Shown: positions 37,062 through 60,838 of the stretch, piece after piece
Layout of the letters: every line of letters begins with the position of its first letter
How positions within the stretch are numbered: the first letter of the stretch is position 1
Source of the DNA: Octopus vulgaris
Taxonomy: Eukaryota
DNA: 64,000 nucleotides
NCBI GenBank assembly: GCA_951406725.2
Contig: OX597822.1
Span: 69,998,001-70,062,000 of the forward strand
Direction of reading: 5' to 3'
Program-made: the position numbers and the translations under genes
The notes under the pieces: generated by a model
What the model saw: only the letters and a program-made list of their open reading frames with translations
Database searches by the model: none
Told to the model about the DNA's origin: nothing

Positions 37062-37164
37062 ATCTATCGGTCTGTCTGTCTGACTGTCTGTATGTCTGTC
37101 CGTCTGTCTATCTATCTGTCTATCTGTATGTATGTATATGTATGTATATGTACATATATATACA

Positions 37165-37254
<90 letters not shown>

Positions 37255-37256
<2 letters not shown>

Positions 37257-38082
37257 AGGACAGATCCTGATGTCTACAACTCTTTCCTGCAATCAGACCT
37301 AGACACAATGCAGCAATGGATCACAGACTGGCAACTGAAACTGGCTGTGGACAAGTGTACCACCATGCATTTTGGGAGAAAAAACCCTGCGTTCACATAC
37401 TCCCTCCACAACACTGATATCAAGAAATCCTCTTGTGAGCGTGACCTAGGCATCACTGTCAGCAGTGATTTGCGTTGGTCAAAGCATATCTCTAAGATTG
37501 TCAGGAAGGCCGAGGGTGTCTTGGCATCACTCAGCAGGTCTTTTGTTAGCCGCTCTCCAGCCATCTATTTAAAACTGTATACAGCTATGGTACGACCACA
37601 CTTGGAATTCGCATCATCAATTTGGAACCCCTATCTTGCACAGAACATTGACCTCCTGGAATCTGTCCAGAGACGTGCAACCAAACGCATACCCTCCATC
37701 AGACACCTACCATATTCTGAGCGCCTTGTTTCCCTGGGCATGGATTCACTGAAGCTCCGGCGTTTGGCGACGGACTTGGTAAACACCCACAAAGTTATCA
37801 ACCACCTCACCAACAACAACACTGAACACCTTTTTGATCTCCATGTGTCTAACACACGTGGACATGCCTACAAAGTCAGAAAATAATACAGCTCCCATGA
37901 CTTTCGGAAACATTTTTTCACGCTCAGAGTTGCTGAAGCATGGAATAAACTGCCTGCGTCAGTTGTTGACTGCCATGACACTGCATCTTTTAAGGCCCTC
38001 ATGCTTTCCGAAATCCGCCGAAACTACACCTGATTATATATACACTTTAGATGAGTTGTAGTGCACCTGAGCACTGTACACA

Positions 38083-42199: not shown

Positions 42200-42294
<95 letters not shown>

Positions 42295-42386
42295 GAGATA
42301 AAACCACTATTTTGCAAATCAAACAAAGAAAGACTTAATCCAATACATAAAAAAATTTTAATATAAATTAAATAAAATTATATTCG

Positions 42387-42432
42387 CCACTACAATTGTT
42401 TCATGTCTCTTCTCAGGACATTCATCAGGTGG
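42387..42432 (-). ncRNA. type I hammerhead ribozyme motif, - strand copy
   Basis: Exact reverse complement of 42489-42534. Confidence 0.8.
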
Positions 42433-42488
42433 ATTTCAGATCTAAAAATAATCAATATTTTTAAGATATAAATTTATAATTTATAAAT

Positions 42489-42534
42489 CCACCTGATGAA
42501 TGTCCTGAGAAGAGACATGAAACAATTGTAGTGG
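42489..42534 (+). ncRNA. type I hammerhead ribozyme motif (minimal, palindromic helix III)
   Basis: CCAC-CUGAUGA-AUGUC[CUGAGAAGA]GACAU-GAAA-CAAUUG-UA-GUGG. All core residues are canonical; GUA cleavage predicted after 42530. Confidence 0.85.
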
Positions 42535-42721
42535 CGAATATAATTTTATTTAATTTATATTAAATTTTTTTTATGTATTGGATTAAGTCTTTCTTTGTTT
42601 GATTTGCAAAATAGTGGTTTTGTCTCTAATTAATATTATATAATATTTTACTATAAAATTGGATTCAATCCTAAATCTGATTTTCCCTGTAAATTTGGAT
42701 TTATTCCCTAATATTTATTAT

Positions 42722-42756
<35 letters not shown>

Positions 42757-42843
42757 ATAATACACATACATATACACATACACATATAAATGTATATATA
42801 TATATATATCTTTATCAACAAACATTGGAGTGATGAGTGAGTT

Positions 42844-43027
42844 GACATATTTTTAAAAATTAAGAAAATCTTGAAGACTAAAGAATAGCTGTGAAAACAG
42901 CTTTAGAAAATTGCGTAAAAATACACCTACAGATGTCTATAGGAGTATTTTCACCTGATTTTCTTAAGCTGTTTTCACAGCTATTCTTTAGTCTTCAAGA
43001 TTTTCTTAATTTCTAAACATATATGTG

Positions 43028-47565: not shown

Positions 47566-48490
47566 CTGATGAAGGCTGGAAAGTATATCAACTGAAATGT
47601 TGTGTTAGCAACAAACAAGATGAAGACAAATATTTGTCAAATGTAAATAATGTAAATAATGTAGTATTGGTTTGTTTACATTCTTGTCACTTGGAAGTTC
47701 AGCAAAAGTTTATGATAAGATAAATACTAAACTTGAAAAGAAATAAGTACTGTGATTGATTTATGTGACAAAAACCCTTCAAGGCATGCCCCAGCATGGC
47801 AACAGTCCAATGACTAAAGCAAGTAAAAGATAATATTAGGGAGTCTTCAAAAGGCAATGGACATTAACTGTCTTCTTCCAAATAAACCATAAAAAGAGAG
47901 ACATTTTGTAAGAGTTAAGCAATATGGATTAACAAATAAAATTTTAAAATTTTATGGGGTTTTTTGCGTTGAGGAAGAATTTCTGTTTTTGTTTACCTTT
48001 TCTTCTTGTTTTGCTGTTAATATTTTAATCAATAATTATGAGTTTTCTGAAATGTCAGTCTTCATCAAATGTCACTCTAAATCCAAATCAAACTATTTAA
48101 GCACAAACAACACCTGAACAGGTATAGTATGTGTGTCTCGTTAAAGTTCTCAGCTCTGCTACTGATATAAAGTGCAACGTATATTTGTTTCAGTTTACTC
48201 AGAAAAAGAGAGAAATGTATATATATGTATGTGTGAGTGTGTGTGTGTGTGTGTGAATGTTTGTGTGTGTGTATGTAATATGTGTATATATATACTCACA
48301 CACATATATACACACATGCACATATATGTAAATGTATACATACACACACAAGCATATATTATATATATGTATATACATTTGTAAATGTTTATATATATAT
48401 ATATTATAAATATCTGTAAATATGCATGTGTGTGTGTGGATGTGTGTGTGTGTGTGCGTGTGTGTGTGCATATATATACATGTATATATG

Positions 48491-53776: not shown

Positions 53777-53811
53777 GTTTCTGACGAAGAGCTCCGCTCG
53801 AAACGTTAAAC
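53777..53811 (+). ncRNA. minimal type I hammerhead motif (PLE type)
   Basis: GUUU-CUGACGA-A-GAGC UCC GCUC-GAAA-CG-UU-AAAC. Palindromic AACGUU replaces helix III. Confidence 0.7.
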
Positions 53812-56292: not shown

Positions 56293-56570
56293 GTGCTGAG
56301 GGGAAATGCTTTGGGCAGTGGTGTTGGAAGTTACTCATAACAGAGAAATACAATGGAAGAAATGTTGAACTTAAATCTGAAGATGTTGAGCTTCACAGAC
56401 AAAATGATGCTTGTGAGAGGAGCGACAGTTTACTGTATTGAAGATTGTCCAGCCTATACCACCATGGAATTTCATCCTCATAACTTAATGTCTGCTTTTT
56501 CTTGTTTGTATGGGTCAGACAAAGTTTGTTTGTGGCAGATTTTCTGTGGACAGATACCTTTCTTTTAACC

Positions 56571-57122
56571 TTTCTGAAAAAGATATCATCATCTGAAAAA
56601 GATTTTCTAACTAGAAAGGGTATGGCCTGGTCAGCCTGTAATGATATGCATAAGATCTGGTCATCAAATCTAAGTAGAGATTTCAAACTTAAAATCTTCA
56701 AAGCCACAGTCGAACCAATTCTACTATATGGCTCAGAAACCTGGACGTTATCAAAGAAGCTTGAGAGGCGGTTGGATGGAATTTACACTCACCTCCTTAC
56801 AAGAGCTCAAAATCTCTCATGGAAGCGTCATCCAACCAAAGTACAAATATATGGGAAATTACTACCTGTATCATCTCTTGTGAAAGGTAGAAGAGTCCAG
56901 TTTGCTGGACATTGTTGTAGAGCTGAAAACGAGGTAATTTCTACTCTTCTCCTCTGGAAGCCATCTGCTCGCGATACCAGAGGGTGCACATTCTCCTACC
57001 CTGATGTAATCTCCAGGGATACAGGCATCCAGCAACAGGACACCCGTAATGCTATGATGGACTGTGAAGTCTGGTGTAACATAGTAAATTCCATTGTCTC
57101 GACCACAGTCGAACAATGATGA
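56571..57122 (+). mobile_element. 5'-truncated RTE-clade LINE with open C-terminal ORF
   Basis: SSSEKDFLTRKGMAWSACNDMHKIW..KIFKATVEPILLYGSETWTL..RRVQFAGHCCR..W. Has an 11-bp TSD TTCTTTTAACC (56560-56570, 57123-57133) and a short TGA tail. Confidence 0.92.
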
Positions 57123-58247
57123 TTCTTTTAACCAAACCTCACCTGTTTCCAAATAAGGTAACATTTTCCCATGAAACTAGTTCTTGAAGAATATAGGACA
57201 TGAATGATACTGCTTTGTGGGAAGCAAACTTCTTACCACACAGCCACACTTACACCAGTTATATAATGTACACATATTAAATTTTAATGCTGATACTACT
57301 GCTGCTGGTGATGCCAACAATTATAATAATGATTTCAAATTTTTGCCACAAGGGCAGCTTGGGGTGGGTGTGTATAAACTCGATTACATTTACCCCAGTG
57401 CGTAACTAGTACTAATTTAATTGATCCTGAAAGAATGAAAGGCAAAGTTGACTTTGGTGGAATTTGAACTCAGAACGTAGCAGCAGATGAAATATCACTA
57501 AGCCTTTTGCCTGGTGTGCTAACGATTCTGCCAACTTGCCACCTTTGCCAACAATTATAATAATCTTTTCTGATCTAGGCACAAGGCCTGAAATTTTGGG
57601 GGAGGGGGCCAGTCGATTAGATTGACCCCAGTGCGCAACTAGTTCTTAATTTATTGACCCTGAAAGGATGAAAGGCAAAGTCGACTTTGGTGGAATTTGA
57701 ACTCAGAATGTAAAAGTTATAATAATGAAGGCGGTTTACGATAGACCATCATCAATCAATGAATAAAAGAATAGAATGTAGATATTGCAAAGATACCTCA
57801 AACCATGATGATATTACTTTCAATTATGCCATGATGATATAAACTTTCGGTCTCACTGTCTCTGAAAGATTAACTAAAATATGGTTTTAAAGTTTTATTT
57901 CTGCATAAATATACATTTGCCAAGACATAAGGAGTGCTCTGTTTTATATTCTCTTGTCAGGTGGAAGATACAGATTAAAATAGATTAGCAGCTGACCCTG
58001 CTCTTATGTCAAAACCAGGTCAGGGAATATTTTAGGGCAGGAAATGCCAAACTATATGACTTATAACATTACAGAAATTCTCCGTATTGTTGAGGGCAGA
58101 AAGATTTTGTTTTGTGCTATCATGTATGACAAAAGATGCAAAAGAGTGTGGAAGGGTCTCACACGCATACATACATACATACATACATACATATGTACGT
58201 ACCTACAGACATACATACATATGTACGTACCTACATACATACATATA

Positions 58248-58928
58248 TGCAGACTTTGTGGAGTTAACACCAAAGATATCATCCACATCATAAGCAGTTG
58301 TCTAAAAATGTCATCATGGTATTATCTACTGATGAAGCATGATGATGTAGCTAGGCCACTCTATAATGAAATCTGTCTGAAGGATAATCATGAGGATAAA
58401 GAAATAAGAACCCACAGTATGGTAGAAGCCATAGCCACTCATAATAAAAAGGAATGCTGGTGGAATGTACCAGTGAAAACCTCAATAAAATGTAAGCACA
58501 ACAGACCTGATATAATGATTTGGGATAGAGAAGAGAAACTGTGCACAGTTGTGGAAATTAGATGCCTAGCGGATGTTAACATAAAACTGAAGATCAGTGA
58601 AAAAGAGAATACCTATGCCGAACTATTGAGAAATCTGTAGTTACTGTATCCAGATTACAAGTTCAGGTTTATATCTGTAGTTATTGGGGCCATGGGATAT
58701 GTAACACTCTACCTAAATACCTTTCTTGAGAAATTAAGTTTCTCAAAACCAGAAAAGAGAAAGCTAATTTGAAGACTACAGATCCAATCCATCATGGGAA
58801 CTGTAAAAATCTGTAAAACTTCCTAGAAGTTTATAATTTAAATATATATGAGCATGTCTAGATATGTAACTATGTGCATGAGAATACATACATAAAGCTA
58901 AACATACAAATCTGCACATATACAAATA
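58248..58928 (+). mobile_element. restriction-like-endonuclease LINE (R4/Dong-like) 3' part, copy 1
   Basis: CCHC knuckle CRLCGVNTKDIIHIISSC, KHDDVAR, HNRPDIMIWDREEKLCTVVEI..KISEKENTY (PD-(D/E)xK type). Begins after (CATA)n. Confidence 0.9.
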
Positions 58929-60172: not shown

Positions 60173-60838
60173 TCCCCAAAGACAAAGAAATAAGAACCTA
60201 CAGTATGGTAGAAGCCACAGCCACTCATAATAAAAAGGCGTACTGTTGGAATGTTCCTGTGAAGACTCAATAAAATGTAAGCACAACAGACCTGATATAA
60301 TGATTTGGGATAGAGAAGAGAAACAGTGTACAGTTGTGGAAATTAGCTGCCCAGCAAATGTTAACATAAAGCTGAAGATCAGTGAAAAAGAGAACACCGA
60401 TGCTGAACTATTGAGAAATCTGCAGTTACTCTATCCAGATTACAAGTCCAGGTTTATATCTGTAGTTATTGAGGCCATGGGATACGTAACACACTACCTA
60501 AATACCTTTCTTGAGAAATTAGGCTTCTCAAAACCAGAAAGGATAAAGCTAATTCAAAGACTACAGATCCAATCCATCATAAGAACTGTAAAGAATCTGT
60601 AAAACTTTCCAGAAGTTTATAATTTAAATATATGTAAGCATGTCTAGATGTGCAGTTATATGCGGGAGAATACATACATAAAGCAAAACATACAAATCTG
60701 CACATATACAAATAATACAAACAAAAATACCCTGTTGTTGATGTTGAAATTCCAATGAATTGGATCTAGGTTAGAAACTGGCTCTTTCTCTATTGGCAAG
60801 AAATCTTGAAATAAAACTGAACAATGACATACATACAT
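60173..60838 (+). mobile_element. restriction-like-endonuclease LINE 3' part, copy 2, complete 3' UTR
   Basis: KCKHNRPDIMIWDREEKQCTVVEISCPANVNIKLKISEKEN. Ends AATAAAACTGAACAATGA(CATA)n. Confidence 0.9.

Follow-up and report, generated by a model that had tools for sequence, protein, structure and literature searches.

A probable by-product of two-site priming on a sense RNA: a hairpin with paired hammerhead motifs from a dispersed, non-coding, likely Penelope-like repeat family of Octopus vulgaris

The foldback in the 64,000-nt stretch of Octopus vulgaris DNA analysed here (the window) is one copy of a dispersed non-coding family, present in thousands of copies in TA tracts. We consider it probable that the window copy is a 5'-truncated, ORF-less (TA)n repeat, likely of non-autonomous Penelope-like type, and that its foldback arose from the priming of both cut target strands on one sense RNA. 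The hairpin is likely a by-product of insertion rather than a switch.

Table 1. Layout of the window copy (positions in nt of the window).
Feature	Position	Strand	Remarks
Left (TA)n target tract	42203..42291	none	TRF: 44.5 copies, 100%
Inverted arm, from intron end through hammerhead to site A	42293..42476	-	sense on minus strand
Type I minimal hammerhead, predicted cleavage 42391/42390	42387..42432	-	
3' end of family intron; acceptor AG 42443-42442, exon 2 from 42441	42442..42476	-	match to unspliced copy L071
8-nt filler at arm junction, near-copy of neighbouring bases	42477..42484	none	sequence
Direct arm, its 5' end truncated 4 nt ahead of helix I	42485..42628	+	
Type I minimal hammerhead with palindromic helix III, predicted cleavage 42530/42531	42489..42534	+	
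Site A, TA-rich; meeting point of (TA)n with inverted arms and tail-less copies; putative priming site	42629..42642	+	
Unpaired tail up to site B (putative second priming site)	42629..42722	+	
Right (TA)n target tract	42722..42760	none	sequence, TRF

The first-pass annotation of this DNA had reported the same hammerhead on both strands, and the 46-mer at 42489-42534 (+) is indeed the reverse complement of 42387-42432. The arms of ~145 bp that it described are present as well, with 42293-42436 paired to 42485-42628 over 144 bp with 2 mismatches. Its placing of these arms between (TA)n tracts holds in that such tracts flank the copy, but an unpaired tail of ~94 nt (42629-42722) precedes the right tract. 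This tail is the most conserved part across the subfamilies of the repeat family. At the outer end of the inverted arm 7 nt are missing with respect to other copies. To judge from its sequence, the 48-nt centre of the foldback is no random loop: read on the minus strand, ~45 nt correspond to the end of the intron, the acceptor and the start of exon 2 of copy L071, and the filler follows. The window copy is unspliced, since 35 nt of the intron, together with the acceptor, are still present in its minus arm, after which come the 8-nt filler and the plus arm. It lacks the initiator and exon 1, has lost its promoter and is probably inert, except that read-through from a flank would yield dsRNA.

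A DNA search of the 2.8-Gb genome yielded 1,891 candidates, of which 40 were scored, and the best-scoring matches cover all 430 nt of the window foldback. A 31-nt word from the tail has 2,605 exact matches in the genome, compared with 0 for a reversed control, and the 5' half (core) of the hammerhead has 3,670, compared with 4. The first 90 of the 2,605 tail matches served as an unselected sample, chosen so as not to favour foldbacks. In all 90 the right flank is (TA)n; an inverted arm was detected automatically in 63, and about 15 lack one when inspected by eye. Interruptions of the TA flank are duplicated on the opposite side in 13 of 21 informative copies, compared with 1.6 in shuffles, a count that takes in some selected copies and one spurious case (L019), implying from the flanking sequences target duplications of ~13-16 nt. 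This duplication and the preference for AT microsatellites agree with a Penelope-like origin, as do the hammerhead in the terminal repeat, the inverted 5' copy and the one-sided tail. An ORF search in the window element and the long copies gave no RT/GIY-YIG ORF, and the family is therefore at most a non-autonomous Penelope-like member. Some copies (L074-L076, L225/L226) lie inside bigger segmental or tandem duplications.

The window hammerhead contains the cores CUGAUGA and GAAA and the cleavage triplet GUA, in agreement with the pattern CUGANGA/GAAA/NUH, and cleavage is predicted after the GUA, at the bond 42530/42531 proposed earlier. Helix I comprises 4 bp and helix II 5 bp, while helix III is an 8-nt palindrome that forms pairs when two strands are folded together. 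With a 4+4 bp hammerhead descriptor, the 64-kb window gives 2 matches and none of 100 doublet shuffles gives any. Rfam gave nothing at gathering score for the window and no hammerhead row at E<=10, its E-value matches being generic hairpin models; the basis of the hammerhead call is therefore the core motif together with the helices. Short CUGANGA...GAAA cores occur within other repeats at 47566 and 53781 of the window; both fail the 4+4 bp descriptor, and the core at 53781 may be the minimal hammerhead of another family.

To call the motif perfect, as was done at first, overstates its quality. The pair that closes helix II at the core is A-U and not G10.1-C11.1, which PMC4209133 terms highly conserved; in 10 of the 16 family variants this position shows no pairing. 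Across the 16 informative variants 94% of the cells of helices I-III are paired. For the helix III palindrome this is 100%, its self-pairing being kept through AU, GU and GC states with a compensatory AU/GC swap in 6/16 variants, although these states are probably one evolutionary event counted repeatedly. The suggested link to Penelope-like elements and to a dimer-type helix III is supported. As far as these variants allow a judgement, selective constraint is on the hammerhead itself, at the RNA level, in source elements, where the ribozyme would probably cleave in dimeric form or when helped by protein.

The first-pass annotation had further read the foldback as a potential switch between self-cleavage and dsRNA, with the antisense arm transcribed first. 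Masking of the hammerhead is reproduced by modelling: the predicted probabilities of helices I and II are 0.87-1.0 in the isolated 46-mer and 0.0 in the whole foldback, within which forcing the hammerhead would cost ~78 kcal/mol, and read-through RNA of the window copy is predicted to form a hairpin of -239 kcal/mol with no hammerhead. In the same model the right arm alone misfolds (helix I probability 0.0). Recurrence of the arrangement speaks for a switch too, as 27 head-to-head pairs were counted by eye among the first 100 core matches. A switch is disfavoured, however, by the unselected sample, in which both hammerheads are kept in only 20 of 90 copies, one in 26 and neither in 44, and by an unconstrained spacing of the arms, which ranges from tens of bases to 8.8 kb across core matches. 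Transcription of the antisense arm first is not what the copies suggest: the promoter-like units of complete copies (e.g. L225) point outward, so that their own RNAs would contain no antisense arm, and the window copy has no promoter. Each transcript contains one sense hammerhead, and the window pair can therefore not dimerise in cis. Finally, the autonomous L144-type element described below produces the same inversions. That the foldback is kept to toggle between self-cleavage and dsRNA formation is, on balance, very unlikely.

The copies are organised around two fixed sites. Inverted arms nearly always start at site A, whereas direct arms reach ~80 nt beyond it, to site B; a few copies are tailed on both sides, and in solo copies with no tail the end is at site A. 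Inward truncation affects both arms to a variable extent, and arms of up to 4 kb are observed in L078. In 29 BLAST-selected copies the divergence between the arms of one copy is 1.1%, compared with 4.5% between copies, and subfamily variants are present in both arms of the same copy. The arms of 47 unselected copies have a median identity of 99.3% and a minimum of 95.5%, and none of these 47 pairs crosses subfamilies. The joining of two RNAs from a mixed pool through helix III was considered as the main route and is disfavoured, in view of 0/47 cross-subfamily pairs and 0/18 mixed splice states, where ~7 would be expected by a hand estimate. L066 and L132 are possible exceptions to single-template arms; at L066:1100-4460 the left arm is spliced and belongs to a divergent long-helix-II subfamily, while the right end is unspliced and belongs to another subfamily, which makes it a candidate two-template insertion.

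Arm extents were scored in the 45 cleanly mapped copies among the 63 with two automatically detected arms, against an incomplete reference panel; 22 are symmetric, 10 left-longer and 13 right-longer. The 22 symmetric apices exceed the 8.6 expected and the maximum of 18 reached in 5,000 permutations. This excess is in favour of a mechanism in which the same element primes on a single strand, after which the cDNA folds back on itself and is self-copied as far as site A, with later deletion or conversion shaping the arms; the absence of mixed splice states and 20 private variants found in both arms, 9 of them from one divergent copy, point in the same direction. Single-strand priming nevertheless accounts poorly for left arms that contain sequence missing from the right arm, as in 10/45 copies and in the window copy, for tail-less solo copies that end at site A, and for the two different templates in L132 and L066. 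Moreover, among 18 short right arms there are 9 that terminate no more than 18 nt from site A (p=0.0006), a pile-up that is expected if a second primer sat there on the same RNA. We regard single-strand priming as unlikely. Priming of both strands on one RNA is preferred, with the reservation that arm identity could stem from later gene conversion and arm asymmetry from later palindrome deletion. A further candidate, 5' ends defined by ribozyme cleavage, was discarded: 65 of 74 arms pass through the site and 7 end 0-7 nt from it, in an approximately uniform spread. The lack of an excess of arm ends at the predicted cleavage site is consistent with uncleaved RNA as the substrate.

The nature of the template can be read from the long copies, which have the order initiator-like TCACTT, exon of ~30 nt, AAG/GT, ~1.1 kb, TTTTAG/ATC, hammerhead and tail, with no ORF; other subfamilies, as in L078 and L225, have the same arrangement. 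The donor AAG/GT is present in 12/12 long copies and the acceptor was located by script in 10/12, giving intron lengths of 1062-1135 nt in 9 copies and 664 nt in one. At the DNA level the terminal repeat contains, as in Penelope-like elements, a promoter-proximal intron. For one subfamily the exact spliced exon junction has 41 genome matches. Among 21 copies that retain both hammerhead starts, both arms are spliced in 15 and unspliced in 3, with no mixed pair; the 3 remaining copies, called spliced by the script, have one arm that ends inside exon 2 and were set aside as uninformative. One spliced copy (L186) has its donor 4 nt downstream of the usual donor.

Foldbacks with the exactly spliced form in both arms indicate a sense RNA as template. 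A model in which head-to-head arms originate from self-priming on an antisense transcript (proposed in PMC3846280) would agree with the intron-retaining foldbacks (3/18 informative copies; L078, L225). It is difficult to reconcile with the precise GT-AG-spliced junction in both arms of the other 15/18 informative two-arm copies, because an antisense transcript gives no spliced junction unless it derives from an already spliced genomic copy, and such copies lack the promoter region. As far as genomic copies can tell, the spliced two-site record argues against this published model, which for the octopus family seems highly improbable.

The 5' ends of the spliced arms bear on the same RNA. The A of TCACTT is kept in 28 of 30 spliced arms and homology ends there in 22 of the 28. 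A G at -1 is found in 12 of these 22 arms (p=0.003-0.03), which is suggestive of a copied capped 5' end, with the proviso that some of the arms counted are two sides of one copy and that microhomology can mimic the signal. In the centre of L012 the same foreign 12-14 nt replaces exon 1 in both arms, possibly as an alternative upstream exon or as templated filler. Contigs from 4 presumed-RNA runs, compared with the long copy L065, cover the tail and include one that skips the intron (GT..AG); they fit RNA, transcribed copies or genomic spliced copies alike.

Long inverted arms, a TA target and a high copy number are also properties of a MITE or foldback DNA transposon, which in this case would have captured a hammerhead. 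Such an element has fixed symmetric termini and moves without an RNA intermediate, whereas the octopus copies show asymmetric tailed ends, variable internal truncation of both arms, precise loss of the intron and target duplications of the length given above, and we find this explanation scarcely credible. A separate palindrome of ~150 bp at 42860-43010 of the window, 89% self-complementary, is MITE-like and belongs to a dispersed repeat of greater age, with 64 candidates that match in part at 68-95% identity.

In the preferred origin, with both strands primed on one sense RNA, a borrowed RT/GIY-YIG protein would cut (TA)n in a staggered fashion, whereupon site B would serve to prime one strand and site A, ~80 nt upstream of it, the other. 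The template, as judged at the DNA level, was a spliced or unspliced sense RNA with an uncleaved hammerhead. Snap-back copying or microhomology would then link the free cDNA ends, in many cases at the 5' end of the RNA, yielding head-to-head arms of any length with the tail on one side; two hammerheads would be found in one copy when both arms are long enough. Two-strand priming at two fixed sites would explain the inverted pLTR and the one-sided tail together. In LINE-1 twin priming both target strands are likewise primed on one RNA, which gives an inverted 5' part. The octopus family differs in having fixed positions for both starts and arms that are duplicates of one and the same region. 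More tentatively, the family as a whole may be a genome-scale fossil record of a dimeric RT/GIY-YIG protein that uses a single capped sense RNA to prime both strands, each at its own fixed site; spliced copies would be made, no antisense template would be involved, and intron retention would be a survival filter, since only unspliced read-through RNA carries the promoter.

A candidate for the protein source was found in a GIY-YIG search, which gave 6,136 candidates; among the 150 that were scored, many lie in intact 781-aa frames. The locus L144:776-5570 is a young two-ORF Penelope-like element, the 5' end of which lies a few bases from the predicted cleavage site of its own hammerhead. It contains an upstream frame of 479 aa and an ORF2 of 781 aa with RVT_1 and C-terminal GIY-YIG matches and a CX4CXXC linker; the RVT_1 score of 28.9 is just below the Pfam cut-off of 29.6. 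In PMC8557442 this linker is assigned to Neptune/Nematis, and L144 is by its linker a candidate Neptune/Nematis-type element. A PDB sequence search with ORF2 gave 0 matches. L144-type ends have 706 genome matches, and the copies terminate in (TA)n at two sites separated by ~35 nt, form inverted arms of their own (L121, L246/L247, L266) and carry the U3-A8 hammerhead variant described in PMC4209133.

The link between L144 and the non-coding family consists of one direct chimera, L132, in which a truncated L144-type cDNA is fused directly to the arm and tail of the non-coding family, and one ambiguous case, L116, which resembles it with TA intervening. The family is absent within 1.5 kb of all 30 unselected autonomous L144-type ends, and by eye the two have two short motifs in common. 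This sparse link is a counterpoint to the proposed origin, as is the ~80-nt tail, which exceeds the 30-40 nt usual for Penelope-like elements. Further GIY-YIG families are present in the genome, and in 50 GIY-YIG loci and 20 further hammerhead loci no autonomous parent with the same tail was found. In L169 a family arm comes, by eye, directly after the apparent terminal repeat of another GIY-YIG family, the two having the same orientation.

The Penelope-like elements with inverted pLTR and tail described in PMC3846280, PMC8557442 and PMC2377424 share with the octopus family the head-to-head terminal copy, the one-sided tail, the (TA)n target, an initiator-like TCACT, a short exon 1 and a terminal-repeat intron that ends beside the hammerhead. 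Unlike these elements, the octopus family has no ORF, an intron of ~1.1 kb and a tail of ~80 nt, and many of its copies are precisely intron-less, whereas intron retention is reported there as a hallmark. With the minimal type I hammerheads of metazoan PLEs (PMC4209133) it has in common the 4-bp helix I, the short palindromic helix III and the thousands of dispersed copies; it departs from that set in its 10.1-11.1 pair, which is not G-C and is often mismatched, and in a helix II of 4-5 bp. The same paper mentions opposite-strand hammerhead pairs 100-700 bp apart in Schistosoma and a Drosophila Penelope intron that ends at helix I.

For Anolis Poseidon, PMC11167929 describes how both strands are cut and extended in vitro, starting at two internal sites. 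Common to both systems are a tail bounded by two such start sites, an AT-rich target and uncleaved RNA as main substrate. The Poseidon study differs in that it concerns an autonomous Poseidon-clade protein, with inverted arms outside its scope, whereas the candidate octopus partner has a Neptune/Nematis-type linker. Non-LTR retrozymes (PMC7229834; 10.64898/2026.07.22.740005) are similarly non-coding, contain type I hammerheads and are likely PLE-mobilised. In contrast to the retrozymes, the octopus family shows no head-to-tail tandem arrays of 170-400 nt, the close pairs among the first 100 core matches being all head-to-head, its ends are not set by cleavage, and it has a spliceosomal intron.

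Inverted pLTRs and opposite-strand hammerhead pairs are already published. In the literature searched, with subscription papers mostly outside it, no description of either this family or head-to-head PLE copies in spliced form was found; the family may be listed in the supplements to PMC4209133, PMC8557442 and PMC13282606 or in their repeat libraries. PMC8557442 and PMC3846280 both treat the origin of PLE inverted terminal repeats and the keeping of the intron as open questions. With the octopus family the rival models can be tested in vitro and by counting, given its short non-coding template, its thousands of dated outcomes, its two splice states and a candidate partner that is young. The finding would be ordinary as a regulatory switch at a single locus; its value lies in the family record of sense spliced templates and two fixed starts. 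In addition, the family copies would supply host transcripts with long perfect hairpins in large number.

Elsewhere in the window, at 37127-37886, 56484-57119, 57996-58640 and 60234-60602, open frames are observed which we take to resemble C-terminal fragments of non-LTR retrotransposon proteins.
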